Origin: a virus
Taxonomy: Duplodnaviria > Caudoviricetes
Length of the DNA: 64,000 nt
IMG/VR virus record: IMGVR_UViG_3300021962_000022
Direction: 5' to 3' (one strand)
The notes beneath the pieces were generated by a model. It searched no databases, was not told the origin of the DNA, and saw nothing but the letters and a program-made list of their open reading frames with translations. Position numbers and translations under genes: made by a program. This document shows positions 2,563-54,288 of the stretch, in pieces (position 1 is the first letter of the stretch; the number at the start of each line of letters is the position of its first letter).

Positions 2563-2567
2563 TTCAT

Positions 2568-3164: not shown

Positions 3165-3171
3165 TAATTAA

Positions 3172-5286: not shown

Positions 5287-5287
5287 T

Positions 5288-35214: not shown

Positions 35215-35225
35215 ATCTTATATCA

Positions 35226-35576: not shown

Positions 35577-35618
35577 ATTTCATAAATATAAAAAATCATA
35601 TTTTATAATAAAGTATTT

Positions 35619-36326
35619 TTAACAACCCATTCCCTCAGTGTAAGGATTACCGTCCACTATACCACTCGTAGCGTAGTAAACAGAACCACCATATTTGAAG
35701 TATCCATTATATGGTGTTGTTAAACTTTGGTTAGTATAAATGGCGCCCGAAACTGATGGGAATTCACCAACCGAACAACTAGTGTATACCGTTATTAATC
35801 CACCAGAACATGTTATTACACCCGGACAAGAACATTGTTGTATTGACCAAGAATTAAATAAACATGATGGTGTTGGGGTTGGGGTTAAAGTTCTTGTTGG
35901 TGTTGGGGTTGGGGTTAAAGTTCTTGTTGGTGTTGGGGTTGGTGTTGGTGTTTTTGATGGTGTAGGAGATGGTGGTGGTGGTGTTGCACTCGGTGTAACA
36001 GATGGGGTCACACTTGGTGTCGGACTTGGACTAACACAAACTGTTTGTACATCGAAACACATTGTGTCATAACATGGGAATGCTTTACTATCGTGAGTAT
36101 AGATATTTTTAATAATATATCTTCCCGTAGTTTCATCAGTCATTTTAATCCAATATTGGGTATCAAAAGACAAACCACTAATCGTTATATTATTTACAGT
36201 TAATCCTGTGTTTAATAAAGTGAAAGACGAATCAATAGTTTCAGGATACGGCGATTCACCAGATTTATATCGAATGGAAAAACTACCGTCCGAAACAATG
36301 TTATATATTTTTACATTTAATCCCAT
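35619..36326 (-). CDS. Structural protein with TPTP linker
   Basis: N-terminal beta domain (FN3-like spacing: [11 protein letters not shown]), TPTPTRTL repeats, C-terminal Cys/Tyr module. Confidence 0.6.
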
Positions 36327-36328
36327 TA

Positions 36329-38155
36329 TTATGTCGTTACATCAGAAGTTATATAAATTATTAATGATGTTGTACTGTTAGGTATCAAATATGTATCATT
36401 TATTGAACCTGTACCACAACTTGATTCGGTGTTTGTTTGAACTGTAACTCCGTTTCTAACTATAGAATATCCAACGACGCTACATCCATAACCTAAAGCG
36501 GTACAACCTGAAGTTATACCTAAAGCATCCATACTTAAATCAATTAAATCGCCAACATGTGCTGTTGTTGTACCACTATATGTACTAACAGGGAATGGTG
36601 TGTTCCAAGTATAAAAAGTAGTTCCATTTTTTTGAATATTACCAAAAGTTCTTGAACATGAATTCAATTTTTGATGTTGGTAAATCAAGGATATTGTAAT
36701 TGAACTTGGGGTTGGTGATGGTGTAATAGATATCGATGGTGTTCGTGTGATAGATGGTGTAACAGAAGTAGTTGGTGTAACCGATTGTGTAACGTTTGGT
36801 AAAGATGAACTTGGTGTTGGTGTGATAGATGGTGTTCTTGTGGGTGTTGATGAACGTGTGGGTGTAATTGATGGTGTTATGGTTGGTGTTTTTGTTGGAG
36901 TTGGGGTCTTGGTTACGGTTGGTGTTGGTGTTTTTGATGGTGTAGGAGATGGTGATGGTTGAGGTATCGGAGTTGCAACAAGATATTCAACCGAATTAGT
37001 ACACGAACCAACACTTTGTATCGTTCCGCCTGTTATTGAGTAACAAACCAATGTGGTATAACCTGATATTAATTGAGTATTTGTTACACCAGTTGCAATT
37101 GTAACAATTGTTCCACCTGTTGTGGTTCCCGAAATGTTATATGGTCCCGCTTGATTTAAAAAATAAATTTCTTGTAATGTGAATGTATATTGTGTACATC
37201 CACTTGGTATTGTTGATGGGGACGGGGTTACTGACATTGTTGGAGTCAGTGAAGGTGTAATCGAACTTGTTGGAGTAACACTTGGGGTTACTGAACTTGT
37301 TGGTGTCACAGTTGGTGTAACCGATGGTGTTGAACCCATGGTTGATGAGGGTGTGGGCGTAATTGATGGTGTTATGGTTGGTGTTTTTGTTGGAGTTGGG
37401 GTCTTGGTTACGGTTGGTGTTGGTGTTTTTGATGGTGTAGCCGTAACACTTGGTGTGGATGTCATTGTAGGTGTTACTGTTGGTGTAACACTTGGACACA
37501 CCGGAGAACAAATTTGACCTGAAAAAATCGCAATACCACTATATGGGTATGCTGTATTAACACAGACACCTGATGGGAATAATGAACCACTTTGATATGT
37601 TCCACAACAATCGGTATAATACCAAGATGGACCATCTGTAACACCCGATATACAAACAGGTGTTGGTGTTGGGGTTATAGATGGTGTTGGTGTAGGTGTC
37701 GGACTTGGTCCCGCTTGACAAGTGGGGCAATCAAGATGAAATAACCCGTTATTTTTTAATGTTTGAACGGTAAATGCGGGAATTGTATTTCCCGTACCCG
37801 CGGTATAAACAGGTGTGAATGTGTGACACTCTTCAGAATAGGATATTGTTGCACCTGTGGTATAAAAATATTCATAAATTTCTGAGTTGGGGAAAGAAAA
37901 TTGTTGGTCAGCACCCATCGGGTCACAATTGTCAAAATCCCAAGTATTGTATGTACTATTACATTGACTACATCCTGTATATCCTGAAAAAATAACAATA
38001 CCAGTAGGTCCTGCTCCAACATTACCTGTGGATTCCCAACATTGGTAATCCGCAAAAATGGTGTGTCCCGATAAAACAACACTATCGTTAACTATAAAGT
38101 CTTGATAAGTCGAAGGATTTGAACAAAGTTGGAAGGTTATTATTTGAACAGCCAT
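36329..38155 (-). CDS. Thr/Pro/Ser-repeat virion protein with Cys-rich modules
   Basis: Two tandem N-terminal C...CxxC modules, three TP-rich linkers, beta-rich C-terminal domain; preceded by TATTTAT. Confidence 0.7.
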
Positions 38156-38199
38156 TTATTAATTTTCTATCTATAAATACTTAAACCATTATTTTATTT

Positions 38200-41100
38200 T
38201 TAACAAACTTCTTCACAACCACAACCGTGTGCCCCACCACAACAAGTTACACCATAAGAGAAACCTGACGTACCACCTAAATTAGGTATTGTATACCATA
38301 CACCTCTGTCGAATACCGCTAAGTACATTACTCTACTTATACATCTACTTTCAGTTGTTGCTGTGGTGTATAATCGTTGAAAGAATTGACCATCACAACA
38401 TTGATAATACATATAAACTTGACCATAATCTGTAATGTCTCGGTCAGTAATATTAATCTCCGTACACTTACAATCACACGCACCTATGACCGATACTGAA
38501 CCAGTCCACGGAAATCCGCCGACGTTAGGTGCTCCACAAGCGCATAAAACTAATTCGTGATTTCCACCATTTGCCTCCCAATAAGCGGGGTCAGACAATG
38601 TTTGGGCATTACCCTGACAATCTGTGTAACTAACAAAGTTCCAATTGTTTAATTGAGTTACTAACCATTCACGACAATCACATGGTGGTGTTGATGAAGG
38701 TGTTGGGGTTGGAGTTGGTGATACACCCGCAGCAGCAGGGGAACTTGATGGTGTTACAGAAGGGGTAACAGATGGAGTTAAAGATGGTGTAACCGAAGGT
38801 GTTGGTGTTCTACTTGGTGTAACAGATGGAGTTAAAGATGGTGTAACACTAGCGGTTCTCGATGGTGTAACCGAACTTGTTGGTGTAACGCTCGGGGTTA
38901 CTGATGGTGTAACTGAAGGTGTAACTGATGGAGTTACGCTGGCAGTTCTTGAAGGGGTAACAGATGGTGTTGGTGGTGGGGATGCTCCCGCTGTTCTACT
39001 TGGTGTAACACTAGCGGTTCTTGATGGAGTTAAAGATGGTGTAACCGAAGGTGTTGGTGTAACACTTGGTGTTCTTGACGGTGTAACACTTGGTGTTATC
39101 GATGGTGTAACACTAGCGGTTCTCGATGGTGTAACGGATGGACAATTTTGAAACGTTTCAAGAATACATTCTTCACAACTACCATAACTTGATGTATATA
39201 TCGGGCCGGTATTTGGTCCAAAGTCATCAAATCTTGCACATAATTGGGCTGATTGTATATAAAACACCGTTCCAATTGCCGTACCAATTGGTACTCTACC
39301 TTGATAAATTGTTGTATCACCAGCACAACATGAAGTAAACACCGCACCTATGTACTGTGGACTTGGTGATGGTGTTACAGAAGACGTTGGTGTTAATGAA
39401 GGTGTAATAGATGGTGTTACTGAACTACTTGGTGTAACTGAAGGTGTAACGGAAGGTGTAACGCTCGATGTTGGTGTCACAGAAGGTGTAACGCTCCGTG
39501 TTGGGTCTGGTGTTCTTGATGGTGTAGGAGTAACAGAAGGTGTAACGCTCGATGTTGGTGTCACAGAAGGTGTAACGCTCCGTGTTGGGTCTGGTGTTAC
39601 TGAACTACTTGGTGTAACTGAAGGTGTTGTACTTGGTGTAATTGAAGGTGTTACAGAACTACTTGGAGTTACAGATGGTGTTCTTGAAGGGGTGATAGAT
39701 GGTGTAACAGATGATGTTGCGGTTACTGATGGTGTTGTACTTGGTGTAATTGAAGGTGTTACAGAACTACTTGGAGTTACTGATGGTGTTGTACTTGGTG
39801 TAATTGAAGGTGTTACAGAACTACTTGGAGTTACAGATGGTGTTGTACTTGGTGTGATAGACGCGGTAACACTTGATGTTGGTGTTAACGACGGAGTGAT
39901 AGAAGGTGTTACAGATGGAGTTCTTGAAGGGGTCAAAGAAGGTGTTCTTGACGGAGTTGCAGTTACTGAACTTGTTGGGGTTGGTGATGGTGTTGGACAG
40001 GTAAATACCGCGTTACAACTTGCACAATCAGCGAATTTTGAACTAGCCAATGTATAGAAAGGATATGCACCATTTGCAATTAAAACAAATGATTGATAAC
40101 ATGTCCCTCCAAATGGATAAATTCCAGGGTTACCAGTTATGTAGTTAAAATCACCCTGTGTCATGTTGATGTTGTAAATATTGTTATCACAACAACTCTG
40201 TGTTTGTACCGACACAATTACAGTTGATGGTGTTACTGTAGGTGTAACTGATGGAGTCACAGAACTACTTGGGGTTACCGAAGGTGTTACAGAAGGTGTA
40301 ACGCTCGATGTTGGTGTTACTGTAGGTGTAACTGATGGAGTCACAGAACTTGTAGGGGTTACGGATGATGTAACGGAAGGTGTAATGCTCGATGTTGGTG
40401 TCACAGAAGGTGTAACGCTCCGTGTTGGGTCTGGTGTTCTTGATGGTGTAGGAGTAACAGAAGGTGTAACGCTCGATGTTGGTGTCACAGAAGGTGTCAC
40501 TGATGGTGTTACACTTGGTGTGACAGAACTTGTTGGGGTAACTGATGAGGTAACCGACGGAGTCACTGAGCTTGTTACCGATGGTGTAACTGAAGGTGTT
40601 ACACTTGGAGTTACTGAAGAAGTAACAGATGGTGTAACGGAACTTGTTGGTGTTACTGATGGTGTTACTGAACTTGTAACCGAAGGTGTTACAGAACTAG
40701 TTGGGGTGACTGAAGGTGTTAGTGATGGGGTAACTGATGCGGTTCTACTTGGTGTAACTGATGGTGTAACAGATGATGTTGGTTCTGGTGTTCTTGATGG
40801 TGTAACAGATGATGTTGGAGTTACAGAAGGTGTTGTACTTGGTGTGATAGAAGGTGTTACGGATGATGTTGCTGTCACTGATGGAGTTACAGAAGGTGTC
40901 ACGGATGGTGTAACAGATGATGTTGGAGTTACAGAAGGTGTTGTACTTGGTGTGATAGAAGGTGTTACGGAACTTGATGGTGTAACGGAAGGTGTTAATG
41001 ATGGTGTAACTGACGGTGTAACACTTGAAGTTGCTGTCACTGATGGAGTTACAGAAGGTGTCACCGATGGAGTAACAGATGATGTTGGTGTTACGGATGG

Positions 41101-44100
41101 TGTTCTACTTGGTGTAATTGACGGAGTTACAGAACTACTTGGAGTTACAGAAGGAGTAACCGATGAAGTGATACTCGGAGTTACTGAAGACGATGGTGTT
41201 ATTGAAGGTGTTGTACTTGGTGTGATAGAAGGTGTTACGGAACTTGATGGTGTAACGGAAGGTGTTAATGATGGTGTAACTGACGGTGTAACACTTGAAG
41301 TTGGTGTAATTGACGGGGTTACCGATGGAGTTACCGATGGGGTAACACTTGATGTCGGTGTAACACTTGGTGTCCTACTTGGTGTAACTGATGGTGTCAC
41401 AGATGAAGTTGCAGTTACTGAAGGTGTTGTACTTGGTGTGATAGAAGCCGTCACAGATGGTGTTACAGAACTACTTGGAGTTACAGAAGGTGTTGTACTT
41501 GGTGTTATTGAAGAAGTTACCGACGGAGTTACAGAACTACTTGGGGTAACTGAAGGTGTTCTCGATGAAGTGACAGAAGGTGTTACAGAAGATGTTGGTG
41601 TAACAGAAGGTGTTACAGAAGGAGTCACGGATGGTGTAACCGAACTACTTGGAGTTACTGATGGTGTTGTACTTGGTGTAAGTGATGGGGTAACAGAACT
41701 TGTAGGAGTAACCGAACTAGTAACACTTGGTGTGAGAGATGGTGTAACCGAACTACTTGGTGTAACTGAAGGTGTTGTACTTGGTGTAAGTGATGGAGTA
41801 ACTGAGCTACTTGGGGTTACAGAAGGAGTAACACTTGGTGTAACTGAGCTCGTAACACTTGGAGTAACTGATGGTGTAACACTTGGTGTAACTGAGCTCG
41901 TAACACTTGGAGTAACTGATGGTGTAACGGAACTACTTGGTGTAACCGAAGGAGTAACAGAACTTGTTACAGAAGGAGTAACAGATGATGTTGCAGTTAC
42001 TGAAGGGGTTACTGAAGGTGTAACTGAAGGTGTTACCGAACTTGTTGCAGTTACCGAAGGGGTTCTTGACGGGGTGACACTCGGTGTAACACTAGAAGTA
42101 GGTGTAACAGATGGAGTAACGGATGGTGTTACTGAACTTGTTATGGATGGTGTTACCGAACTAGTAACTGAAGGAGTAACTGATGGAGTCACACTTGGAG
42201 TTACGGATGATGTTGGTGTTACAGATGATGTCACCGAAGGGGTTATACTCGGTGTAACCGAACTAGTAGGTGTAACGGATGGAGTTACTGATGGTGTAAG
42301 TGATGGTGTAACGGAACTAGTAGATGTTACAGAAGGGGTTACTGATGGTGTAAGTGATGGTGTAACGGAACTAGTAGATGTTACAGAGGGGGTTACTGAA
42401 CTTGTAACACTTGGAGTAACTGAAGACGTTGGTGTTACCGAAGGTGTTACCGAAGGTGTAACCGATGGGGTTACTGAAGAAGTTGGTGTTACTGACGGTG
42501 TTACCGAAGGAGTTACAGAACTTGTTACCGAAGGTGTAACGGAAGGTGTTAAAGATGGTGTTATACTTGGTGTTACTGAAGGTGTTACGGAACTACTTGG
42601 TGTAACACTTGGCGTTCTTGAAGGAGTAACACTTGGTGTAACTGAACTTGTTGGCGTAACTGAACTTGTAACTGACGGGGTTATTGAAGAAGTAACACTT
42701 GGAGTTACGGAACTAGTAACAGATGGAGTGACACTTGGTGTTATAGATGGTGTAACAGAACTTGTGGGTGTTACTGATGGTGTAAGTGATGGAGTAACAG
42801 AAGGTGTTACTGACGATGTCGCGGTTACGGATGGGGTAACAGATGGTGTAAGTGATGGTGTTACCGAACTTGTTGGAGTAACAGATGGTGTAACGGATGG
42901 TGTAACAGAACTAGTAACTGATGGAGTAACCGAACTTGTTACTGAAGGAGTTACACTTGGAGTAATCGATGGAGTTACTGAAGATGTTGGAGTTACAGAA
43001 GGTGTTGTACTTGGTGTAATTGATGGGGTTACAGATGACGTTGCGGTTACGGATGGGGTAACAGATGGTGTAAGTGATGGTGTTACACTTGATGTTACTG
43101 ATGGAGTAACACTTGGTGTTCTTGATGGTGTTATAGATGGTGTAACTGAACTTGTCGGTGTAACTGAACTTGTAACAGATGGTGTGACAGATGGTGTTAC
43201 CGAACTAGTTGCAGTAACCGAAGGAGTAACCGAAGGGGTAACCGACGGAGTAACGGAACTTGTTGGAGTTATAGATGGTGTAACGGAACTAGTAACCGAT
43301 GGAGTTACACTTGATGTTACCGATGGGGTTACACTTGGTGTTACAGAACTTGTTACCGATGGTGTTACTGAACTTGTAACCGAAGGTGTAACAGAACTTG
43401 TAACTGACGGAGTAACAGAAGGTGTTACTGAACTAGTAGGTGTCACTGATGGAGTCACACTTGGTGTTACACTTGGAGTAACAGACGAAGTTGGTGTCAC
43501 AGATGGAGTAACCGATGGTGTTACTGAACTAGTAACCGATGGTGTAACAGACGATGTCACTGATGGAGTCACACTTGGTGTTACACTTGGAGTAACAGAC
43601 GAAGTTGGTGTCACAGATGGAGTAACCGATGGGGTTATACTTGGTGTTACCGAACTTGTTGGAGTTATAGATGGTGTAACGGAACTAGTAACCGATGGAG
43701 TTACACTTGATGTTACCGATGGGGTTACACTTGGTGTTCTTGACGGTGTTATAGATGGTGTCACGCTCGAAGTTGGTGTAACAGATGGAGTTACAGAACT
43801 TGTTACCGAAGGTGTTACAGATGATGTTGGTGTTACTGATGGTGTTACGGAACTTGTAACCGATGGAGTTACAGACGAAGTAACGGATGGAGTCACTGAC
43901 GGAGTAACCGATGGTGTAACCGAACTTGTTGCGGTAACACTTGGTGTCACACTTGAAGTAACGGATGGAGTCACTGAACTTGTTGGTGTTACCGATGGTG
44001 TTACTGATGGAGTTACGCTTGATGTCACTGAAGGTGTTACCGATGGGGTAACTGAAGGTGTTCTTGATGGTGTAACTGATGGTGTTACCGAACTTGTTGG

Positions 44101-47100
44101 AGTAACTGATGAGGTAACTGATGGAGTCACTGAAGAAGTGACCGATGGGGTAATGGATGATGTTGGAGTAACAGATGGTGTAACTGATGGTGTTAGTGAT
44201 GGGGTTACTGAAGACGTTGGGGTTACAGATGGTGTAACACTCGGAGTTATGGAACTCGTTACTGACGGAGTCACTGAACTTGTTACCGACGGTGTTATTG
44301 ATGGTGTTGCCGATGGAGTAACAGAACTTGTCGGAGTTACTGAAGGAGTTACTGATGGTGTTACCGAACTTGTTACGGATGGAGTTACCGAACTTGTAAC
44401 AGACGGAGTAACTGACGATGTCACAGATGGCGTAACACTTGATGTTGGAGTTACTGATGGTGTTACCGAACTAGTAACAGATGGTGTAACTGAACTTGTA
44501 ACAGAAGGAGTAACTGAAGGTGTTCTTGACGGTGTTACAGATGGTGTAACTGATGATGTCGGGGTAACTGATGGAGTTACAGAACTAGTAACCGATGGAG
44601 TTACTGAAGATGTTGGAGTAACAGATGGTGTTACACTTGGTGTTACTGACGCGGTTACTGATGGAGTTACAGATGATGTAACTGATGGGGTAACCGAACT
44701 TGTTACCGAGGGTGTTACTGACGAAGTTGGTGTTACTGACGGAGTTACTGATGGTGTTATACTTGGAGTAACAGAACTTGTTGGGGTTACCGAAGCCGTA
44801 ACAGAAGGTGTTACTGAACTTGTTACCGAAGGTGTTACGGATGATGTTACAGATGGCGTTCTACTTGGTGTAATAGATGGTGTTACGGAACTAGTTGGGG
44901 TAACTGAAGGAGTTACGGATGGGGTAACAGAACTTGTCACCGAAGGTGTTACAGATGGTGTTACGGATGGAGTAACCGATGGTGTAACTGATGGTGTAAC
45001 AGACGAAGTTGGTGTCACAGAAGGTGTAACCGATGGAGTGACACTTGACGTTACTGACGGAGTCACTGAACTTGTTACCGACGGTGTTATTGATGGTGTA
45101 ATAGATGGTGTTACTGAACTAGTTGGGGTAACTGAAGGAGTCACGGATGGGGTTACAGAACTAGTGACAGATGGTGTTACTGAAGGGGTTACAGACGGAG
45201 TAACTGACGAGGTTACAGAAGGGGTTACACTTGATGTTGGAGTAACTGAAGCGGTAACTGACGGTGTTACGGATGGGGTAACAGAACTTGTTACCGAAGG
45301 TGTTACAGATGGTGTAACAGAAGGTGTTACAGAAGATGTTGGTGTAACAGATGGTGTTACTGAAGGTGTTACCGACGGTGTTACAGAACTAGTTGGTGTT
45401 ACTGATGGAGTTACTGAAGGTGTAACGGAACTAGTGACAGATGGTGTTACTGAAGGTGTTACTGATGCGGTTACCGATGGAGTAACTGAAGAAGTTGGTG
45501 TAATCGATGGTGTCACAGACGAAGTTACAGAAGGTGTAACAGAACTTGTTGGCGTTACACTCGGAGTTACTGATGGTGTTATCGAAGGTGTTACTGATGA
45601 TGTAACAGATGGAGTTATACTTGGTGTAACTGAACTTGTAACACTTGGAGTCACAGAACTTGTAGGGGTTACGGATGATGTAACGGAAGGTGTAACCGAT
45701 GGGGTAACTGATGATGTCACCGACGGAGTGATAGACGGAGTCACACTTGATGTCACCGATGGTGTAACTGAACTGGTGGGTGTTACTGACGGTGTAATCG
45801 ATGGTGTAACGGAAGGTGTTATAGAACTAGTTACTGAAGGTGTTACAGAAGGTGTTCTACTTGGTGTTACTGATGGAGTAACGGAACTTGTAGGAGTTAC
45901 CGACGAAGTAACAGAAGGAGTTACTGAACTTGTAACTGATGGAGTTACAGAAGGGGTTAAAGATGGTGTTACAGAACTAGTGACTGACGGTGTTACCGAT
46001 GAAGTTGGTGTTACCGAAGGTGTGACAGATGGAGTAACAGATGATGTCACGGATGGCGTAACGCTTGGGGTAACACTAGGTGTGACTGAAGGTGTTACGG
46101 ATGGGGTTACTGAACTTGTTGGTGTTACAGAAGGTGTGACAGATGGAGTAACAGATGGTGTAACCGATGATGTTACCGATGGAGTAACCGATGGAGTGAC
46201 AGAACTAGTGACTGATGGTGTTACACTCGAAGTAGGTGTTACCGATGGAGTAACTGATGGTGTAACTGAACTTGTAACGGAAGGTGTTACTGAAGGTGTA
46301 AGTGATGGGGTGACTGATGACGTAACTGAAGGAGTCACTGATGATGTTGGGGTAACAGATGATGTTACTGAAGGTGTTACAGAAGGAGTTATCGATGATG
46401 TAACCGATGGTGTTACCGAACTAGTAACAGAAGGGGTTACACTTGGTGTTACTGATGATGTCGGTGTAACACTTGGTGTTCTACTTGGGGTAACTGATGG
46501 AGTTACAGAACTTGTAGGTGTTACTGACGGTGTTAATGATGGCGTAACTGAACTTGTAACAGAAGGTGTAACAGATGGTGTTACCGAACTAGTAACTGAT
46601 GGAGTTACACTTGGAGTTACAGATGATGTGGGTGTTACAGAACTTGTAACCGATGGAGTTACAGAACTAGTGACTGACGGAGTAACCGATGGAGTAACGG
46701 ATGGTGTAACTGAACTCGTAACCGAAGGGGTCACTGAAGAAGTTGGGGTAACAGAGGGTGTTCTACTTGGGGTGATGGATGGGGTGATGGATGACGTAAC
46801 TGAGGGAGTGACACTCGGAGTAACCGATGAAGTCACTGAAGGTGTAACACTCGAAGTAGGTGTCACTGATGGTGTAACCGATGGTGTAACTGATGAAGTA
46901 GGTGTCACTGATGGTGTAACCGATGGTGTAACTGATGAAGTAGGTGTCACTGATGGTGTAACCGATGGTGTAACACTCGAAGTAGGTGTCACTGATGGTG
47001 TAACCGATGGTGTAACACTCGAAGTAGGTGTCACTGATGGTGTAACCGATGGTGTAACTGATGAAGTAGGTGTAACCGATGAAGTCACTGAAGGTGTAAC

Positions 47101-50100
47101 ACTCGAAGTAGGTGTCACTGATGGTGTCACTGATGGTGTAACCGATGGTGTAACTGATGAAGTAGGTGTAACCGATGAGGTAACTGACGGTGTAACAGAA
47201 CTAGTGACCGATGGAGTTACAGAACTTGTTACCGAAGGTGTAATCGAAGGAGTTACCGACGGTGTCACAGACGAAGTTGGTGTTACAGACGGAGTTACAC
47301 TTGGTGTTACAGACGGAGTTACAGACGAAGTTGGTGTTACAGACGGAGTTACACTTGGTGTTACAGACGGAGTTACACTCGATGTTACAGATGGAGTAAC
47401 AGATGGAGTGACAGAACTAGTAACTGATGGAGTCACACTCGATGTTGGGGTAACTGAAGGAGTCACGGATGGGGTAACAGAACTTGTTACCGAAGGTGTT
47501 ACTGACGAAGTTGGTGTTACGGATGGAGTTACCGAAGGGGTAACAGAACTTGTTACCGATGGTGTTACAGAACTAGTAACTGAAGGTGTTAATGATGGTG
47601 TTATTGATGGTGTAACTGATGGAGTGACGCTCGAAGTAGGGGTTACTGATGAGGTGACAGAAGGTGTTACCGAACTAGTAACTGATGGTGTAACTGATGG
47701 GGTTACTGAAGGTGTTACAGAACTAGTAACCGATGGTGTCACACTTGATGTTGGAGTTACTGATGGTGTTGTACTTGGTGTAAGTGATGGGGTTACCGAT
47801 GATGTAGGTGTTACTGAAGGTGTTACCGATGGAGTAACACTTGAAGTAACTGACGGTGTAACGGATGGTGTTACACTTGGGGTAACACTCGATGTTACAG
47901 ATGGGGTCACAGAACTAGTTGGTGTAACAGACGATGTAACCGACGGGGTTATAGAAGGTGTAACTGATGGGGTTACAGAACTAGTAACTGATGGGGTTAC
48001 AGAACTTGTTACACTTGGTGTTACTGATGAGGTTGGAGTCACCGACGGAGTAACCGAAGGAGTAATCGAAGGTGTTACTGAACTAGTTGGTGTGACAGAA
48101 GATGTAACTGATGGTGTAACAGAGGGTGTAACTGATGATGTTGGGGTTACTGATGAAGTTACCGATGGGGTAACAGAACTTGTTACTGAAGGAGTAACCG
48201 AAGAAGTTGGTGTTACGGATGGGGTGACCGAACTAGTGACAGAAGGTGTTACCGATGGAGTGACACTTGAAGTAACTGACGGTGTAACTGAACTACTTGG
48301 GGTAACACTTGGGGTTACTGATGAAGTTACCGATGGTGTAACACTCGATGTCGGAGTTACTGATGGAGTAACAGAACTTGTTACTGACGGAGTTACTGAT
48401 GGTGTAACAGAAGGAGTAACACTCGGAGTTACAGATGATGTAACAGATGGTGTTACTGAACTTGTAGGGGTTACTGAAGGTGTTAGTGAAGCGGTTACCG
48501 ATGGGGTAACTGAACTTGTTGGTGTTACCGATGCGGTAACGGAAGGTGTGATAGATGGAGTAACACTTGGTGTCACCGATGAGGTTACGGATGGGGTAAC
48601 TGATGGTGTTCTACTCGGTGTTACTGACGGTGTAACAGATGATGTTGGTGTTACGGATGGTGTTACACTTGGGGTTACAGATGGTGTTACCGAACTAGTT
48701 GCAGTAACCGAAGGAGTAACTGAAGGTGTTACCGAAGGTGTGACAGAACTTGTAGGAGTAACCGATGAGGTAACAGATGGGGTCACTGATGAAGTTACTG
48801 ATGGAGTAACGCTCGATGTTGGTGTTACTGAAGATGTTACACTTGGTGTTAAGGATGGTGTGACTGATGATGTTACTGAAGGAGTTACTGATGGTGTTAT
48901 ACTTGGGGTTACAGATGATGTAACGGAAGGTGTTACTGACGATGTTGGGGTTACGCTCGGAGTTACGGATGCGGTAATAGATGGTGTTACAGAACTAGTG
49001 ACAGATGGTGTAACACTTGGTGTAACCGATGAGGTAACAGATGGGGTAACTGAACTACTTGGTGTAACGCTTGGTGTCCTCGATGGGGTAATTGATGGTG
49101 TAACAGATGAAGTTGGTGTAACTGACGGAGTAATCGAACTTGTTACAGATGGAGTTATTGAACTTGTTACAGATGGAGTTACAGAACTTGTTACCGAAGG
49201 TGTTAATGATGGTGTTACGGAACTAGTTGGTGTTACTGATGGTGTAAGTGATGGTGTGACAGATGGTGTGATAGATGGTGTAACCGAATTAGTGACTGAT
49301 GGTGTAACGGATGGTGTTACGGAACTCGAAACTGAAGGTGTTAATGATGGTGTAACTGAAGGTGTTAATGACGCGGTTACGGACGGTGTTAAACTTGGTG
49401 TTACTGAAGGTGTTGGTGTACTTGTTGGCGTTGGTGATGGTAACATCGTATAATCAATGTCACATGAAGGTGCTGGTGTAGGGGTTACTGATGGTGTTAA
49501 AGACGGAGTAACCGATGGAGTTACAGAACTAGTTGGTGTAACGCTTGGTGTGACAGATGGAGTTACTGATGGGGTGACAGAACTAGTAATAGAAGGTGTT
49601 ACCGATGAGGTTACACTTGGTGTTACTGAACTTGTAGGTGTAATTGATGGTGTAACGGAACTAGTGACCGAAGGTGTAACCGATGGTGTAACGGAACTAG
49701 TTGGGGTGACTGACGGAGTTCTACTTGGTGTTAGTGATGGTGTAATAGAAGGAGTTACACTTGGAGTAACTGAACTTGTTGGAGTAACACTCGGGGTTAC
49801 AGATGATGTAACAGAAGGTGTTACTGAACTTGTGACAGAGGGTGTTACTGATGGGGTAACAGATGGTGTTACACTTGGTGTTACTGAACTTGTAGGGGTT
49901 ACTGATGGTGTTCTAGATGTCGTAACGGAAGGGGTTACGGAACTAGTTGGTGTTACGGAACTAGTAACAGATGGTGTAACCGACGGCGTTACTGAACTAG
50001 TAACTGACGGAGTAACACTTGGGGTTTCACTTGGAGTAACCGAAGGTGTTTCACTTGGTGTTATCGACGGTGTAACCGAACTAGTAGGTGTAACCGAAGG

Positions 50101-53100
50101 TGTTTCACTTGGAGTGATTGACGGTGTTACAGAACTAGTTAGAGTAATGGAAGGTGTTATACTTGGGGTTACCGATGATGTTACTGAGGGAGTTATAGAT
50201 GGGGTTATACTCGGTGTAACCGATGCGGTGACAGATGGTGTAACTGAACTCGTGGGTGTAACTGATGGAGTTACCGATGCGGTGACAGATGGTGTAACTG
50301 AACTAGTAACACTTGGAGTAACGGATGCTGTAACTGAAGGTGTTATACTTGGTGTAACAGAACTAGTTGGGGTTACAGATGGAGTTTCACTTGGTGTTAT
50401 CGACGGTGTTATACTTGGTGTAACAGACGCAGTAACTGATGGAGTTATACTTGGTGTAACAGACGCAGTAACAGATGGTGTTACCGAACTAGTGGGTGTA
50501 ACCGAAGGTGTTTCACTTGGAGTTATACTTGGTGTAACAGAACTAGTGACTGATGGTGTAACACTTGCGGTAACGGAAGGTGTCACTGATGGTGTAACCG
50601 ATGCGGTAACTGATGGTGTTATACTTGGTGTAACGGAACTAGTAACAGATGGTGTCACCGAAGGTGTAACAGATGATGTCGGTGTAACACTTGGTGTTTC
50701 ACTTGGAGTTATACTTGGTGTAACTGATGATGTCGGTGTAACACTTGGTGTTTCACTTGGAGTTATACTTGGTGTAACTGACGGAGTAACACTTGATGTT
50801 GGAGTTACAGATGGGGTTATACTTGGAGTTACCGATGCAGTAACCGACGGTGTAACCGAACTAGTTGGTGTAACAGATGGAGTTTCACTTGGTGTGATAC
50901 TTGGTGTAACGGAACTAGTAACAGATGGGGTTATACTTGGAGTTACCGATGCAGTAACCGACGGTGTTACTGAACTAGTTGGGGTTACAGATGGAGTTTC
51001 ACTTGGTGTTATCGACGGTGTTACGGAACTGGTTGGTGTAACTGAACTAGTAACACTAGGTGTTATACTTGGTGTAACTGAACTAGTAGGTGTAACACTT
51101 GGTGTAACGCTTGGTGTTACGGATGAAGTAACCGAAGGTGTAACTGAACTAGTCGGTGTAACACTTGGTGTTTCACTAGGTGTAACCGATGCGGTAACAG
51201 ATGGTGTTACTGAACTAGTAGGTGTAACACTTGGTGTTTCACTTGGTGTGATTGATGGTGTTATACTTGGTGTAACGGATGATGTTGGGGTTACAGATGG
51301 AGTTTCACTTGGAGTTATACTTGGAGTAACCGACGGTGTAACTGAACTAGTTGGTGTAACAGATGGAGTTTCACTTGGTGTGATACTTGGAGTTATACTT
51401 GGAGTAACTGATGATGTTGGTGTGATAGATGGTGTAACTGAACTAGTAACTGATGGAGTTACAGAACTTGTTGGGGTTATAGACGGAGTTTCACTAGGAG
51501 TGATTGACGGTGTTATACTTGGTGTAACTGATGAAGTAACAGATGGGGTTACTGATGGTGTTACTGAACTAGTGACACTTGGAGTAACTGAACTAGAGGG
51601 TGTAACCGAAGGTGTTGCACTTGGTGTTATACTTGGTGTAACTGATGATGTTGGTGTGACTGATGGAGTTACAGAACTAGTAACTGACGGAGTAACACTT
51701 GATGTTGGTGTAACACTTGGTGTTTCACTTGGAGTGATTGATGGTGTTATACTTGGTGTAACGGAACTAGTAACACTAGGTGTTATACTTGGTGTAACTG
51801 AACTAGTAACAGATGGTGTTACCGATGGTGTTTCACTTGGTGTTATACTTGGTGTAGCAGATGGTGTTACTGAACTAGTAGGTGTAACACTTGGTGTTTC
51901 ACTTGGTGTAACGGAACTAGTAACAGATGGTGTTATTGAAGGAGTTACAGAACTAGTGACTGATGGAGTTACTGAACTTGTCACACTTGGTGTAAGTGAT
52001 GGGGTAACAGAACTTGTTGGAGTTACGGAAGGTGTGATTGATGGTGTAACTGAAGGTGTTCTTGAGGGTGTTAAACTTGGTGTTACAGATGAACTTACAG
52101 ATGGAGTAACCGAACTTGTAACCGAAGGGGTTACGGAACTAGTTGGTGTTACGGAACTAGTAACAGATGGTGTTATTGAAGGAGTTACGGAAGGTGTTAA
52201 TGATGGTGTTACAGATGATGTTACAGAAGGGGTTACCGAAGGTGTTACAGAAGGTGTAACTGATGACGTTGGTGTTACGGAACTAGTAATCGATGGGGTT
52301 ACACTTGAAGTAACAGATGGTGTAACTGAACTAGTAACTGAAGGTGTTAATGATGGTGTTCTTGATGGTGTAACAGAAGGAGTTACGGATGAGGTTGGTG
52401 TAACCGATGAGGTAACCGATGGTGTAACCGAACTAGTAACTGAAGGGGTTACCGAGCTCGTTACTGATGGAGTAACACTTGAAGTTACAGAAGGAGTTAC
52501 GGAAGGTGTTATACTCGAGGTTGGGGTTACTGACGGTGTCAATGATGGTGTAACGGAACTAGTGACCGAAGGTGTAACCGATGGTGTAACTGATGGAGTG
52601 ACACTTGGTGTAATCGATGGGGTAACAGATGATGTTGGGGTGACTGACGGTGTTATACTTGGTGTAATTGATGGGGTTACCGATGATGTAGGTGTTACTG
52701 AAGGTGTTACCGATGGAGTGACACTTGAAGTAACTGACGGTGTAACGGATGGTGTTACACTTGGAGTCAATGAACTTGTAACTGATGGTGTTACAGATGA
52801 TGTCGGAGTTACTGATGGAGTAACAGAGGGTGTAACAGAACTAGTAACTGATGGTGTTACTGATGGTGTTAGTGATGGTGTAACTGAACTTGTAACAGAA
52901 GGTGTTACCGATGGTGTAACTGAACTAGTGACCGAAGGTGTAACCGATGGAGTTACAGACGAAGTTGGGGTTACACTTGGTGTGATTGACGGGGTAACCG
53001 AAGGGGTTACAGAACTAGTAACACTTGGAGTTACGGAACTGGTAACAGATGGTGTTACCGATGGAGTTACAGATGATGTTGGTGTTACTGAAGGGGTTAC

Positions 53101-54195
53101 TGAACTTGTTATCGATGGTGTTAATGATGGGGTTACTGAACTTGTTGGTGTTACAGAGCTTGTAACTGACGGTGTAACACTTGAAGTAATTGATGGTGTA
53201 ACACTCGGAGTTACGGAACTTGTTGGAGTTACAGATGGTGTGACTGATGGTGTGATAGATGGTGTAACCGAACTAGTAGGTGTAACTGATGGAGTTACTG
53301 AAGCGGTTATAGATGGAGTCACTGAACTCGTAACAGATGGTGTAACGGAACTTGTTGGGGTTATAGATGGTGTTAAAGACGGAGTAACCGATGGTGTAAC
53401 TGATGGAGTTACTGAACTTGTTGGTGTAACAGAACTAGTAACAGATGGTGTTACTGAAGAAGTTGGTGTAACAGATGTGGTAACCGATGGTGTTACTGAA
53501 GGTGTAACCGACGAAGTTGGTGTTACAGACGGAGTCTCACTTGGAGTTAACGACGGTGTTAAACTTGGTGTTACTGAAGAAGTTGGTGTAACAGATGTGG
53601 TAACCGATGGTGTGATAGAAGGAGTAACTGATGGTGTAACACTTGGAGTAACTGAACTTGTTGGTGTTACACTTGGAGTCTCTGAAGGTGTAATAGATGG
53701 AGTTACAGAGCTAGTGGGTGTGATTGATGGTGTAATCGAGCTAGTTGGAGTTACAGAAGGTGTAACTGATGGTGTAACATCTGGTGTTCTTGTTGGTGTA
53801 ACCGATGGGGTTGGGGTAATTGAACTCGTTGGAGTAACTGATGGAGTCACTGATGGAGTTGAAGTTACTGATGGGGTTGTTGTGACAGTTGGTGTTACTG
53901 AAGGTGTGGTTGTGACAGTTGGTGTAACAGGAGGTGTACTTTGTGGTGTTGGCGTTAAACTTGGTGTAACAGAAGGTGTAATTGAAGGTGTTGGGGATGG
54001 ACAATTAATTGCCGCGTAACATGTTTTGTCATGCGATGGAAAATAAACTGAATAGGTTCCTAAGTAATAAGTTGTGTCGTAATAATACGGCATCACAACA
54101 GTACCTAAATTAATGGTACCGCCAGTACAGGGATAAAATGTGATAACACCAATTTCACCATCAAAATTACCTGTGTTTATCTTTATTAATGCCAT
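38200..54195 (-). CDS. Giant 5331-aa mucin-like Thr-Pro-Ser-Val repeat protein
   Basis: Uninterrupted 16-kb ORF with non-repetitive N- and C-terminal domains, internal Cys modules, and a consensus promoter upstream. Confidence 0.85.
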   Translation of the reverse strand: MALIKINTGNFDGEIGVITFYPCTGGTINLGTVVMPYYYDTTYYLGTYSVYFPSHDKTCYAAINCPSPTPSITPSVTPSLTPTPQSTPPVTPTVTTTPSVTPTVTTTPSVTSTPSVTPSVTPTSSITPTPSVTPTRTPDVTPSVTPSVTPTSSITPSITPTSSVTPSITPSETPSVTPTSSVTPSVTPSVTPSITPSVTTSVTPTSSVTPSLTPSLTPSETPSVTPTSSVTPSVTPSVTTSVTPTSSVTPSVTSSVTPTSSVTPSVTPSVTPSLTPSITPTSSVTPSVTSSVTPSITASVTPSVTPTSSVTPSITPSVTPSVTPTSSVTPSVTPSITSSVTPSVTSSVTPTSSVTPSLTPSITSSVTPSVTPTSSVTPSVTPSVTSSVTPSVTSSVTPSVTPSITPSVTPTSSVTPSVTPSVTSSVTPSVTPSVTSSVTPSLTPSVTPSVTSSVTPSVTPSVTPTSSVTPSVTSSLTPSVTPSVTPSVTSSVTPSVTPSVTPTSSVTPSITPSITPSVTPTSSVTPSITPSVTPSVTPSVTPSVTSSVTPSLTPSVTPTSSITPSVTPSVTSSVTPSVTSSVTPSVTSSVTPSVTSSVTPTSSVTPSVTPSRTPSLTPSVTSSVTPSVTSSVTPSITSSVTPTSSVTPSVTPSVTPSVTSSVTPSLTPSVTPSITPSVTSSVTPTSSVTPSVTSSVTPSVSSSVTPSLTPSRTPSVTPSITPSVTPTSSVTPSLTPSVTSSVTPSVTSSVTPSITPSVTSSVTPSETPSVTPTSSVTPSATPSITPSETPSVTPSVTSSVTPSITPSVTSSVTPSITPSITPSETPSVTPTSSVTPSVTSSVTPSVTPTSSVTPSITPSATPSVTPSSSVTPSVTSSVTPSVTPSVTSSVTPSITPSITPSETPSITPTSSVTPSVTSSVTPSITPTSSVTPSITPSITPSETPSVTPTSSVTPSVTPSITPSETPSVTPTSSVTPSITPSITPSETPSVTPTSSVTPSVTASVTPSETPSVTPTSSVTPSVTSSVTPSVTPSVTPTSSVTPSITPSVTSSVTPTSSVTPSITPSETPSVTPTSSVTPSVTASVTPSITPSVTSSVTPSITPSETPSVTPTSSVTPSVTASVTPSITPSVTPTSSVTPSVTPSITPSETPSVTPTSSVTPSITPSETPSVTPTSSVTPSVTPSVTSSVTPSITPSVTASVTPSVTPSVTASVTPSVTSSVTPSITPSETPSVTPTSSVTPSVTASVTPSITPSVTASVTPSITPSITPSETPSVTPTSSVTPSITPSVTASVTPSVTSSVTPSVTASVTPSVTPTSSVTPSVTASVTPSITPSITPSVTSSVTPSITPSITLTSSVTPSITPSETPSVTPTSSVTPSITPSETPSVTPSETPSVTPSVTSSVTPSVTPSVTSSVTPTSSVTPSVTTSRTPSVTPTSSVTPSVTPSVTPSVTPSVTSSVTPSVTSSVTPSVTPTSSVTPSVTPSITPSLTPSRTPSVTPTSSVTPSVTPSVTSSVTPSITPTSSVTPSVTSSVTPSITSSVTPSVTPSVTPSVTPTSSVTPSVTPSLTPSVTPTPAPSCDIDYTMLPSPTPTSTPTPSVTPSLTPSVTASLTPSVTPSLTPSVSSSVTPSVTPSVTNSVTPSITPSVTPSLTPSVTPTSSVTPSLTPSVTSSVTPSVTSSITPSVTSSITPSVTPTSSVTPSITPSRTPSVTPSSSVTPSVTSSVTPSVTPSVTSSVTPSITASVTPSVTPTSSVTPSVTSSVTPSITPSVTPSVTSSVTPSLTPSVTSSVTPTSSVTPSVTSSVTPSVTSSVTPTSSVTPSVTPSVTPSVTATSSVTPSVTPSVTPSVTPTSSVTPSVTPSRTPSVTPSVTSSVTPSVTPSITPSVTASVTPTSSVTPSVTASLTPSVTPTSSVTPSVTSSVTPSVTPSVTPSVTPSVTSSVTPSVTPTSSVTPSVTSSVTPSVTPSSSVTPSVTSSVTPSVTPSVTSSVTPSVTPTSSVTPSVTSSVTPSVTSSVTPTSSVTPSVTPSVTSSVTPTSSVTPSITPSVTPSVTPTSSVTPSVTSSVTPSVTSSVTPSVTPSITPSVTSSVTPTSSVTPSVTSSVTPSVTPSVTPSVTSSVTPSVTPSVTPTSSVTPSLTPSTTPSVTPTSSVTPSVTSSVTPSVTPSVTPSVTSSVTPSVTSSVTPTSSVTPSVTPSITPSLTPSVTSSVTPSVTSSVTPSVTPSVTPTSSVTPSVTSSVTPSVTPSVTPTSSVTPSVTSSVTPSVTPSVTSSVTPSVTPSVTPSVTPTSSVTPSVTPSVTPSVTPTSSVTPSVTPSITPSVTSSVTPSVTSSVTPSVTSSVTPTSSVTPSVTPSVTPSVTPTSSVTPSVTSSVTPTSSVTPSVTPSVTPTSSVTPSVTPSVTPTSSVTPSVTPSVTPTSSVTPSVTPSVTPTSSVTPSVTPSVTPTSSVTPSVTSSVTPSVTPSVTSSITPSITPSRTPSVTPTSSVTPSVTSSVTPSVTPSVTPSVTSSVTPSVTSSVTPTSSVTPSVTPSVTSSVTPSVTPSVTSSVTPSLTPSVTPTSSVTPSVTPSRTPSVTPTSSVTPSVTPSVTSSVTPSVTSSITPSVTPSVTSSVTPTSSVTPSVTSSVTPSLTPSVTPSVTSSVTPSVTPSVTPTSSVTPSVTSSVTPSVTPSVTSSVTPSVTPSVTPSVTPTSSVTPSVTPSVTPSVTPSVTPSVTSSVTPSVTPSVTPTSSVTPSVTSSVTPSLTPSVTPSVTSSVTPSVTSSVTPTSSVTPSVTPSRTPSVTPSVTSSITPSVTPSITPSVTPTSSVTPSVTSSVTPSITPSVTSSVTPSVTPSVTSSVTPTSSVTPSVTSSVTPSITPSVTSSVTPSITPSVTPSVTPTSSVTPSVTSSVTPSITPTSSVTPSVTASVTPSVTPSVTSSVTPSVTPSVTPTSSVTPSVTPSVTPSVTPTSSVTPSVTPSVTPSVTSSVTPSVTPSVTASVTPTSSVTPSVTSSVTPSVTPSVTPSVTSSVTPSVTPSVTPTSSVTPSITPSITPSVTSSVTPSVTSSVTPSVTPSVTPTSSVTPSVTPSVTPSVTPSVTPSVTSSVTPSVTPSVTPTSSVTPSITPSRTPSVTSSVTPSVTSSVTPSVTASVTPTSSVTPSITPSVTPSVTPTSSVTPSVTSSVTPSVTSSVTPSVTASVTPSVTPSVTPTSSVTPSVTSSVTPSVTPTSSVTPSVTPSRTPSVTPSVTSSVTPSVTSSVTPSVTPTSSVTPSVTSSVTPSVTSSVTPSVTSSVTPSVTPSVTPTSSVTPSATPSITPSVTSSVTPSVTSSITPSVTPSVTPTSSVTPSLTPSVTPSVTPTSSITPSVTSSVTPSVTSSVTPTSSVTPSVTPSRTPSVTPSVTPSVTSSVTPSVTPSVTPTSSVTPSVTSSVTPSVTATSSVTPSVTPSVTPSVTSSVTPSVTSSVTPSVTPTSSVTPSVTSSVTPSVTPTSSVTPSITPSRTPSVTPSVTSSVTPSVTSSVTPSITPTSSVTPSITPSVTPSVTPTSSVTPSVTPSVTPSVTSSVTPSVTSSVTPSVTPSVTPTSSVTPSVTPSVTPSVTPTSSVTPSVTPSVTSSVTPSVTSSVTPSVTSSVTPSVTPSVTSSVTPSVTSSVTPSITPTSSVTPSVTPSVTPSVTATSSVTPSVTPSVTSSVTPTSSVTPSITPSRTPSVTPSVTSSVTPSLTPSVTPSVTATSSVTPSITPSTTPSVTPTSSVTPSITPSVTPSVTSSVTPSVTSSVTPSVTPSVTPTSSVTPSLTPSVTPSVTATSSVTPSVTPSLTPSVTPTSSVTPSITPSVTPSVTSSVTPSVTSSITPSVTSSVTPTSSVTPSVTPSRTPSVTPSSSVTPSVTPSITPSLTPSVTPSVTSSVTPSVTPSVTPTSSVTPSVTPSVTPSVTPTSSVTPSVTSSVTPSVTSTSSVTPSLTPSVTPSVTSTSSVTPSLTPSVTPSVTPTSSVTPSITPSVTSSVTPTSSVTPSVTPSVTPSVTSSVTPSITSSVTPSVTPSVTPTSSVTPSVTPSRTPSVTATSSVTPSVTPSVTPSVTATSSVTPSVTSSVTPSVTPSSSVTPSVTPSVTSSVTPSVTPSVTPSVTSSVTPSVTPSVTPSSSVTPSLTPSTTPSVTPSSSVTPSLTPSVTSSVTPTSSVTPSLTPSTTPSVTPSSSVTPSVTPSVTPSVTPTSSVTPSVTSSRTPSVTPSSSVTPSVTSSITPSTTPSVTPSSSVTPSVTASITPSTTPSVTATSSVTPSVTPSRTPSVTPTSSVTPSVTPSVTPSITPTSSVTPSVTPSLTPSVTPSSSVTPSITPSTTPSITPSSSVTPSITSSVTPSVTPSSSVTPSITPSRTPSVTPTSSVTPSVTPSVTPSVTATSSVTPSVTPSLTPSVTPSSSVTPSITPSTTPSVTPTSSVTPSVTPSVTPSVTATSSVTPSITPSTTPSVTPTSSVTPSRTPEPTSSVTPSVTPSRTASVTPSLTPSVTPTSSVTPSVTSSVTPSVTPTSSVTPSVTSSVTPSVTPSVTPSVTSSVTPSVTSSVTPTSSVTPSVTPSVTPSVTPTSSVTPSVTPTPSRTPDPTRSVTPSVTPTSSITPSVTSSVTPTSSVTPSVTPTVTPTSSVTPSVTPSVTPSSSVTPSVTPTVTPSTVIVSVQTQSCCDNNIYNINMTQGDFNYITGNPGIYPFGGTCYQSFVLIANGAYPFYTLASSKFADCASCNAVFTCPTPSPTPTSSVTATPSRTPSLTPSRTPSVTPSITPSLTPTSSVTASITPSTTPSVTPSSSVTPSITPSTTPSVTPSSSVTPSITPSTTPSVTATSSVTPSITPSRTPSVTPSSSVTPSITPSTTPSVTPSSSVTPDPTRSVTPSVTPTSSVTPSVTPTPSRTPDPTRSVTPSVTPTSSVTPSVTPSVTPSSSVTPSITPSLTPTSSVTPSPSPQYIGAVFTSCCAGDTTIYQGRVPIGTAIGTVFYIQSAQLCARFDDFGPNTGPIYTSSYGSCEECILETFQNCPSVTPSRTASVTPSITPSVTPSRTPSVTPTPSVTPSLTPSRTASVTPSRTAGASPPPTPSVTPSRTASVTPSVTPSVTPSVTPSVTPTSSVTPSRTASVTPSLTPSVTPSRTPTPSVTPSLTPSVTPSVTPSSSPAAAGVSPTPTPTPSSTPPCDCREWLVTQLNNWNFVSYTDCQGNAQTLSDPAYWEANGGNHELVLCACGAPNVGGFPWTGSVSVIGACDCKCTEINITDRDITDYGQVYMYYQCCDGQFFQRLYTTATTESRCISRVMYLAVFDRGVWYTIPNLGGTSGFSYGVTCCGGAHGCGCEEVC
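38690..54000 (-). repeat. Degenerate 12/18-nt coding tandem repeat (TPSV/TSSV/TPSI/TPTSSV)
   Basis: Plus strand reads as variants of gatggtgtaac(a/t/c/g); wobble positions vary; interrupted at ~49440-49480, ~40000-40225 and ~39140-39350. Confidence 0.95.
46853..47062. repeat. Five near-perfect 42-nt tandem copies inside the giant gene
   Basis: gaagtaggtgtcactgatggtgtaaccgatggtgtaac(tgat/actc) at 46853, 46895, 46937, 46979, 47021. Confidence 0.9.
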
Positions 54196-54235
54196 TTAAA
54201 TCTACAGTCTTATCTATATCTATTTTTATTATAAA

Positions 54236-54264
54236 AATATACTCAATTTTTAGGGGTTTGTCAA
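54236..54264 (-). promoter_or_regulatory. Consensus sigma70 promoter of the giant repeat gene
   Basis: Minus strand TTGACA (54264-54259), 17-nt spacer, TATATT (54241-54236). Confidence 0.7.
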
Positions 54265-54288
54265 CGTCTATTTTTATTGTTTTTATCA

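Follow-up and report, generated by a model that had tools for sequence, protein, structure and literature searches.

In Caulobacter phage phiCbK, the candidate for the flexible ~200-nm filament of the phage head is gp76, a low-complexity protein of 2,799 aa that includes a lectin domain, and this filament has been proposed to make the first contact with the host, speeding adsorption (PMC3556154). The 2.3-μm tail of a giant eukaryotic virus has been considered with regard to contact rate (PMC12338748). An account of large aquatic phages that have core glycosyltransferases and are predicted to infect Bacteroidota, and that may or may not belong to the lineage treated here, mentions no mucin-like mega-protein (PMC12619734), and our literature search found no description of such a protein in a phage, which is not proof of absence. 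The present analysis concerns a 64,000-nt stretch of a caudoviricete genome (IMG/VR record IMGVR_UViG_3300021962_000022; here called the window), whose minus strand carries an open reading frame (ORF) for a mucin-like protein of 5,331 aa, here called the giant protein. The gene is intact and conserved, is giant in several lineages, lies in the baseplate block, and has a conserved N-terminal and a hypervariable C-terminal end. On balance, we favor the reading that its product is a tether, anchored on the virion and probably O-glycosylated, that bears variable binding modules. The giant gene would be a variation on the phage adhesion-fiber theme with mucin-like architecture, a function predicted from the sequence.

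Organization of the giant protein

The ORF (38200 to 54195, minus strand) begins with ATG and comprises 5,331 codons and a stop codon, with zero internal stops, as laid out in an earlier preliminary description of the window. The predicted product has a mass of ~519 kDa and consists mainly of four residues, Ser (28.6%), Thr (25.7%), Pro (18.1%), and Val (17.3%), which sum to 89.6%. Ser and Thr together number 2,892, linker residues 4,941, and Cys residues 32. The domain order (Table 1) was also as previously described, including the 12-aa island at 49441 to 49476, and the term “mucin-like” proved fair for the architecture, in which Pro/Thr/Ser (PTS) arrays are broken by small Cys-rich modules and the ends are Cys rich. 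In the two main arrays (aa 75 to 4656), S-[VIL]-T-[PSA] units account for 86% of the sequence, with TS inserted every few units. Lys and Arg are nearly absent from the linkers. Within the island, the hydrophobic residues C, I, Y, and M alternate with the polar residues D, D, and T, like an edge β-strand, and its Cys is the sole unpaired one apart from those of the 3-Cys N-domain. No transmembrane segment was found in the giant protein, the highest Kyte-Doolittle mean over 19 residues being 1.17, and hydropathy inspection, rather than a dedicated predictor, showed no signal-peptide-like hydrophobic run at the N terminus, so that both absences stated in the preliminary description were upheld. 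Such absences are expected for virion proteins. Neither a hydrophobic N terminus nor an LPXTG-type C-terminal anchor was found in the giant protein, nor were Sec components among the neighboring genes.

The C-terminal domain was modeled by AlphaFold2 as an all-β structure of two lobes (predicted local distance difference test [pLDDT], 89; predicted template modeling score, 0.83), in keeping with the two C-terminal modules proposed earlier. The model gave no significant match in PDB, BFVD, AFDB clusters, or an exhaustive VIA search, in which the best Z score of 4.2 (PA-IIL lectin, C2 domains) was beneath the noise level. At the sequence level, 20 matches at an E value of ≤1e-3 were obtained among 1.84 billion representatives, the true family members being mostly short fragments. 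The N-domain was modeled with moderate confidence (pLDDT, 71) as a small six-strand Ig-like β-sandwich, with only generic Ig/FN3-like structural matches (Z up to 6.0) and, again, nothing significant in PDB, BFVD, or AFDB clusters. For both models, the best Atlas rows were unnamed phage clusters. Cys module A clustered by BLAST with module B and with the modules of orthologues, indicating one family. Pfam and PHROG searches produced no domain match in any module of the giant protein. Homology to phrog_15511 was rejected, since its matches were confined to the linkers and are attributable to low complexity.

Table 1. Features of the giant gene and of the adjoining DNA (all minus strand; positions in the window)
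Feature	Position	Residues	Cys	Remarks
N-terminal domain	53998..54195 (-)	aa 1-66	3	Proposed virion anchor
Linker array 1	49477..53997 (-)	aa 67-1573 (1,507 aa)		Degenerate S-[VIL]-T-[PSA] tetrapeptides
Island PAPSCDIDYTML	49441..49476 (-)	aa 1574-1585 (12 aa)	1	Single Cys
Linker array 2	40228..49440 (-)	aa 1586-4656 (3,071 aa)		
Cys module A	39997..40227 (-)	aa 4657-4733 (77 aa)	6	
Linker array 3	39361..39996 (-)	aa 4734-4945 (212 aa)		
Cys module B	39139..39360 (-)	aa 4946-5019 (74 aa)	6	
Linker array 4	38686..39138 (-)	aa 5020-5170 (151 aa)		
C-terminal domain	38203..38685 (-)	aa 5171-5331 (161 aa)	16	YQCCDG motif; proposed distal binding domain
Upstream intergenic region	54196..54288 (-)			
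Upstream gene P0005	54289..58530 (-)	1,413 aa		Conserved structural-block protein
Three downstream genes	32926..38155 (-)	608, 235, 762 aa		Beads-on-a-string build like the giant protein

Position in the baseplate block and polarity of conservation

The phage origin given in the preliminary description is supported by the replication genes of the window (SbcCD, primase, exonuclease, sigma factor, and RuvC-like resolvase) and by the structural genes of a relative, G002 (288 kb; 92% complete), whose homologue of the upstream gene P0005 is 89% identical to that of the window. In G002, a T4-type capsid gene (Gp23) is located at 31 kb, the tail sheath gene at 67 kb, and a Baseplate_J gene (PF04865, above cutoff) at 94 kb; the phage is a T4-type jumbo phage of ~300 kb. 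Baseplate_J is followed by six genes on the same strand (1,380, 602, ~276, 392, 307, and 1,419 aa) and then by the giant gene at 107.9 to 124.4 kb, which therefore closes the baseplate block, a position that points to a virion appendage. The nearest IMG/VR record, G001, is a 43-kb contig (CheckV, 14% complete) that is 98% identical to the window over 498 to 34,542 and ends inside the repeat array. Sequence words of the window from 50.0 to 58.5 kb occurred in 20 public runs (12 studies; mostly freshwater), and the phage GenBank collection contained no cultured relative, with no DNA match for 19 to 32 kb and no tblastn match for P0005.

Across the lineages having the giant gene, P0005 is 67 to 89% identical, and the N-domain is 77 to 99% identical over 14 lineage variants, with 35 invariant columns. 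The C-terminal domain is only 30 to 43% identical, with 11 invariant Cys and the YQCCDG motif kept in an alignment of 18 sequences, and the Cys modules differ in number and type between orthologues. Exchange was also seen between close strains: in G001, with flanks 98% identical, a different double module stands in place of module B, and identity in the tip domain is ~40%. Similarly, runs X4 and X9 showed ~17 differences per 170 nt in the tip domain versus 3 per 1,259 nt at the N-terminal end and P0005. The indels listed between strains, of 3, 6, 12, and 24 nt, were all in frame. Two traits of tail fibers were found, namely, a position in the tail/baseplate block and a conserved N-terminal part with a variable C-terminal part; such polarity is the usual pattern of phage fibers and receptor-binding proteins.

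The motif of which the island forms the core, TPAPSCDIDYT-x-[LI]-PSPTP, is present in a single copy and is invariant in every lineage examined except L021. Its distance from the N terminus ranges from ~310 to 1,577 residues among the lineages, and linker array 1 spans ~245 to 1,507 aa in the orthologues.

In more distant relatives that have no separate giant gene, the P0005 homologue itself runs on into Pro/Thr (PT) linkers and varied end modules, including a DUF5122 β-propeller (E, 8e-74), DUF285/BspA-type repeats (E, 1e-60), and small Cys modules. From these sequences, the P0005 homologue would appear to act as a modular fiber platform. Putative binding modules tethered by PT linkers are thus a general device of the structural block, of which the giant gene is the extreme. 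Such extended homologues were located at L058:9998-18682, L030:9983-15340, L033:9983-15382, L075:7025-12943, and L082:7525-13728, with FN3-like and vWA-like parts visible by eye. A mini-motif, C-D-F-D-V-D-L-T-I-I (or DCLFDVDVDV), occurs in 6 to 8 copies between PT linkers at L075:11552-12100, L081:6776-7500, and L082:12055-12820 and resembles the SCDIDYTML of the giant protein's island.

Proposed tether function

In the reading that we favor, the protein would be a single-polypeptide tether held on the particle by its conserved N-domain, probably at the periphery of the baseplate, and the ~4,900 residues of S-V-T-P/S repeats would serve as a spacer that is extended, flexible, protease-poor, and probably O-glycosylated. 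At the far end, Cys-rich β-sandwich modules would recognize a variable target, either at the surface of the host or in its surroundings, and module swapping would retune specificity. For a big particle that diffuses slowly and preys on dilute planktonic hosts, such a long line may widen the capture radius. A second docking or cross-linking (disulfide) point would probably be provided by the island, which is invariant and amphipathic and has a lone Cys, although this is a guess. That the protein is on the virion, is glycosylated, and binds, and what the island does, we infer. The reading draws on the position of the gene in G002, the conservation of the N-domain and P0005 against the divergence of the C-terminal domain, the replacement of modules between close strains together with the single-nucleotide polymorphism hotspot at the tip, the fusion of P0005 homologues to adhesin-type modules via PT linkers, the lack of a signal peptide and of a transmembrane segment, the native and constrained coding sequence, and the candidate glycosylation genes. 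The strongest functional clues, which the preliminary description had missed, are the location in the baseplate block, the contrast of conserved N terminus and hypervariable C-terminal modules, and the invariant island. The head filament of phiCbK provides a functional precedent.

The preliminary description had put the extended length at over a micrometer. This holds for the contour, which is ~1.5 μm (0.31 nm for each of 4,941 linker residues), but not for the reach, which a worm-like-chain calculation, as opposed to a measurement, places at a root mean square of only ~40 to 150 nm for persistence lengths of 0.5 to 7.5 nm.

Several points weigh against the tether reading. The giant protein is known here from its gene only. 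The fold models of the N- and C-terminal domains match nothing of known binding function, and neither the modules of the giant protein nor any of the six genes that separate it from Baseplate_J match a named structural family, so the structural-block argument is one of synteny alone. For the genes neighboring the giant gene, PHROG, Pfam, and Atlas searches yielded no names, and a PDB sequence search with three of them was empty. For the 32 Cys, either oxidation once the cell has lysed or binding of metal would be required, and no Erv1/ALR-type sulfhydryl oxidase was found in G002. Of the candidate genes for glycosylation, the GT60-family pair is known from G002, where the two lie ~141 kb from its giant gene, and not from the DNA of the window. 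Lastly, two orthologues are half as long, and hence the extreme length is not indispensable.

Candidate glycosylation genes and the possibility of a passive coat

Two sets of glycan genes were found in the lineage. A tightly packed operon of the window (27 to 10080, plus strand) encodes a UDP-GlcNAc 2-epimerase, a GT2 glycosyltransferase, two FkbM methyltransferases, and an NAD-dependent epimerase/dehydratase, along with several proteins without a family. Four related contigs carry this operon at a matching relative distance from the giant gene, with an epimerase of 83% identity. No epimerase match was found in G007, a relative without the giant gene, but G007 is only 41% complete, so the test of co-occurrence is void. 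The second set is an operon of G002 (265.4 to 274.9 kb; L115:9376-18899) with two tandem GT60-family genes (PF11397; E, 3e-72 and 7e-48), together with genes for a HAD/nucleotidyl-transferase protein, a TylF-type O-methyltransferase, a separate nucleotidyl-transferase, another methyltransferase, and a RuBisCO-like protein (PF00016; E, 1e-31). In protists, GT60 enzymes initiate O-GlcNAc chains of the mucin type at Thr/Ser residues. No Ser/Thr/Pro-rich, acceptor-like gene was found beside the GT60 pair of G002, and the giant protein would be the most obvious Thr/Ser-Pro acceptor in the genome. The GT60 pair makes O-glycosylation of the linkers plausible, the candidate enzymes being seen in the relative only.

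In an alternative reading, the protein would be a passive virion coat, a hydrated, glycosylated polymer brush on the capsid or tail that protects the particle from proteases, grazers, aggregation, or host surface traps or confers generic stickiness to polysaccharide particles. The composition, with its abundance of Ser and Thr, would suit a glycocalyx, the GT60 and glycan operons are at hand in the lineage, and shielding of mycobacteriophages by virion glycosylation is known (Freeman et al. 2023, cited in PMC12619734). However, a passive brush has no need of hypervariable, swapped Cys-rich tips, and the gene sits in the baseplate block rather than the head block. We therefore regard the coat as unlikely, although it is the alternative that fares best.

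More doubtful still is that the giant protein functions in the infected cell, as a scaffold, a condensate-forming disordered protein, or a conditioner of the surroundings released at lysis. The lack of a structural-family match for the protein and its immediate neighbors would allow this, and disordered low-complexity proteins can form condensates. It is at odds, however, with the baseplate synteny, the fiber-like polarity of conservation, and the adhesin-type modules borne on the same linkers in relatives, and Cys-rich β-sandwich modules are typical of extracellular proteins.

Length of the gene and fidelity of the assembly

An array of this kind might be inflated, collapsed, or chimeric from short-read assembly, the true gene being far shorter or split. 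The length is taken from short-read assemblies, and G001, the closest IMG/VR contig, breaks within the array. Many related contigs end at or within the giant gene. Such genes break short-read assemblies and are probably undercounted in viral catalogues.

Logan contigs (k = 31) from four public runs (X1, X3, X4, and X9) were compared with the window over 37.5 to 54.9 kb. Contigs of X1 and X3, either of which may itself be the source sample of the window, covered 30 of 30 bins, and the listed contigs were free of mismatches, save for one mismatch in a flank contig. The contig depth was that of single-copy DNA in both runs, 37 to 47 inside the gene versus 41 to 53 in the flanks for X1 and 9 to 16 versus 12 to 15 for X3. 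No exact DNA repeat inside the ORF reached 120 bp. With mostly unique pieces at single-copy depth, the array cannot be much shorter than assembled, nor is it strain variants strung together; k = 31 contigs do not prove in what order the segments lie between repeats of 31 to 119 bp. Relatives support the length independently. Complete orthologue ORFs directly downstream of the P0005 homologue measure 5,472 aa in three contigs (G002, G005, and G006), 4,989 aa in another (G004), and 2,940 and 2,737 aa in L021 and L028, and 12 separate IMG/VR assemblies agree base for base over the initial 9.9 kb of the orthologue of 5,472 aa. The length of the giant gene is thus very probably real and not an artifact, and a gross assembly error is highly improbable.

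Coding strand of the repeat

At the DNA level, the array is degenerate, with Tandem Repeats Finder rows showing 60 to 88% matches. The 690 exact SVTP units are spelled by 125 different 12-mers, with the codon preferences of the phage itself, indicating that the peptide was retained while the DNA drifted. Two long ORFs are also present on the plus strand over the array (40181 to 49453, 3,090 codons; 49457 to 54019, 1,520 codons), with a GVTD/GVTE-like translation, and gene callers may report them. They were rejected as genes. When the minus-strand codons were reshuffled synonymously, the antisense frame was open over ~3,088 codons in 100 of 100 cases, compared with 3,091 in the real sequence, and the antisense ORFs are therefore a mechanical by-product of the sense codon set. 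They break exactly at the nonrepeat parts of the giant gene, whereas the minus-strand frame crosses the folded, conserved domains and has the same orientation as all neighboring genes. An open frame by itself is weak evidence, as it follows partly from the restricted codon set. Phage-like codon usage, the synonymous scrambling, and the in-frame indels together argue for a native, constrained protein.

That the array is a noncoding repeat with a chance open frame, or that the product is the tail tape-measure protein, is hardly credible: low-complexity DNA can keep frames open unaided, and large aquatic Bacteroidota phages, which may or may not be of this lineage, lack a findable tape-measure gene (PMC12619734), but conserved folded domains at both ends in one frame, in-frame indels, and synonymous scrambling mark the gene as protein coding, and the 18% Pro, 2-fold length range, and swapped tips contrast with a helical, length-conserved class.

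Maintenance of length

Length polymorphism among relatives, which the preliminary description had proposed to examine, proved wide, with orthologues of 2,737 to 5,472 aa. The two main arrays total 4,578 aa in the window, 4,712 aa in G002, and 4,430 aa in G004, and they are split differently around the island (1,507/3,071, 687/4,025, and 1,170/3,260 aa, respectively). Only 0.1% of the 31-mers of the window gene also occur in G002. Near-equal totals in arrays with almost no 31-mers in common hint at stabilizing selection on total length, a trend drawn from five points, which are few. The remaining two, from shorter complete orthologues, total about half as much: 1,954 aa in L028 (2,737 aa overall) and 2,516 aa in L021 (2,940 aa overall), the latter with no island. 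As far as these sequences indicate, “very long” is maintained, and the exact length is not fixed. The earlier proposal of selection on length is accordingly borne out in part: in-frame indels, the many spellings of SVTP, and the near-equal totals in three lineages speak for it, but the complete half-length orthologues and a frame that is open partly through its restricted codon set do not.

A more specific form of the tether reading can be put forward only tentatively. The protein would represent a new class of virion appendage in a lineage of cosmopolitan freshwater jumbo phages, a single-chain “fishing line” of micrometer contour, O-glycosylated and mucin-like rather than a trimeric β-fiber, anchored by a conserved mini-domain, pinned or cross-linked at the island, and ending in exchangeable disulfide-rich tips, with the linker held near ~4,500 residues by selection in several lineages.

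Neighboring genes and other observations

The 762-aa protein encoded downstream shares modules with the C-terminal domain of the giant protein. The beads-on-a-string cluster is a variable island of the genome: identity between the window and G001 is 98% up to ~34.5 kb and then 86 to 95% with replaced segments, which in the interval 34500 to 40000 include the N-terminal ~190 aa of the 762-aa protein. On the other side, the gene preceding the giant gene ends in the triple stop TAA TGA TAA (54283 to 54291, minus strand), and these three consecutive stops preclude a read-through fusion. The sequence ATAGATA[GT]A occurs at 38166 to 38174 and 54215 to 54223 (minus strand), ~20 to 30 nt before the starts of the next gene and the giant gene. 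It was rejected as a shared promoter, as two matches were obtained in 25 of 100 shuffles and the sequence is absent upstream of the capsid gene.

G002 has, at 0.6 to 5.5 kb (L104:573-5473), 23 tRNA genes in an array that serves almost every amino acid. Among them are Ser(UGA), Thr(UGU), Pro(UGG), and Val(UAC), the tRNAs for the linker codons used most often (TCA, ACA, CCA, and GTA); being members of a near-complete set, they do not count as specific support.

Comparison with known systems

The giant gene takes up 5% of the genome. If the protein is on the particle, it would help to explain in physical terms how rare planktonic hosts are reached by large phages that diffuse slowly, through a larger capture radius, and it would be a natural case of mucin-type architecture, perhaps with mucin-type glycosylation, evolving in a virus of bacteria. 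The public runs that contain it show that test material exists, and the N-domain and island are precise targets for proteomics, antibodies, and cryo-electron tomography.

Among phage proteins, gp76 of phiCbK is comparable in being very large, flexible, of low complexity, and encoded in a structural module, and it was expanded by tandem duplication (PMC3556154). It differs in being Gly/Ala rich, half the size, without Cys-rich modules, and encoded near the head genes of a siphophage. There is no sequence similarity between the two, and the role of gp76, which went undetected in virions, is itself that of a candidate.

Animal mucins, the gel-forming ones among them, resemble the giant protein in their PTS arrays of thousands of residues, small Cys-rich modules, Cys-rich ends, total size of ~5,000 aa, and degenerate, length-polymorphic repeats. 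Unlike mucins, the giant protein has Val as a fourth dominant residue and has no signal peptide or secretory pathway and, according to Pfam, no vWD, CysD, or cystine-knot domain. The likeness would be convergence at most, and glycosylation is putative. For the latter, protist GT60 polypeptide α-GlcNAc-transferases (Dictyostelium and Trypanosoma) act on mucin-like Thr/Ser domains, and G002 has two strong PF11397 homologues of them; the distance between enzyme genes and putative acceptor gene in G002 sets this system apart. Mycobacteriophages encode glycosyltransferases that act in the cytoplasm on virion proteins of the same phage, and the targets are short tails at the C termini of capsid and tail-tube subunits and not a dedicated mega-protein (Freeman et al. 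2023, cited in PMC12619734).

Serine-rich repeat protein adhesins of Gram-positive bacteria (Fap1, GspB, and SraP) are alike in combining a binding region with a stalk of glycosylated hydroxy-amino-acid repeats that is thousands of residues long, and they are glycosylated in the cytoplasm. Their signal peptide, accessory Sec system, LPXTG anchor, [S-x] dipeptides, and binding region near the N terminus are absent from the giant protein.

The fibers of phage T4 (gp34 to gp37 and gp12) share with it a gene position behind the baseplate genes, a conserved N-terminal attachment part, and a variable C-terminal recognition part. Similarity to any fiber family was not found by Pfam or PHROG, and fold searches gave weak, generic β-sandwich rows. 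Canonical fibers are rigid, trimeric β-structures of ~70 to 150 nm, whereas the shaft of the giant protein is of low complexity, probably disordered, and ten times longer in contour. If the protein is on the particle, a host-recognition organ could be a half-megadalton, largely disordered, mucin-like polymer instead of a rigid fiber.

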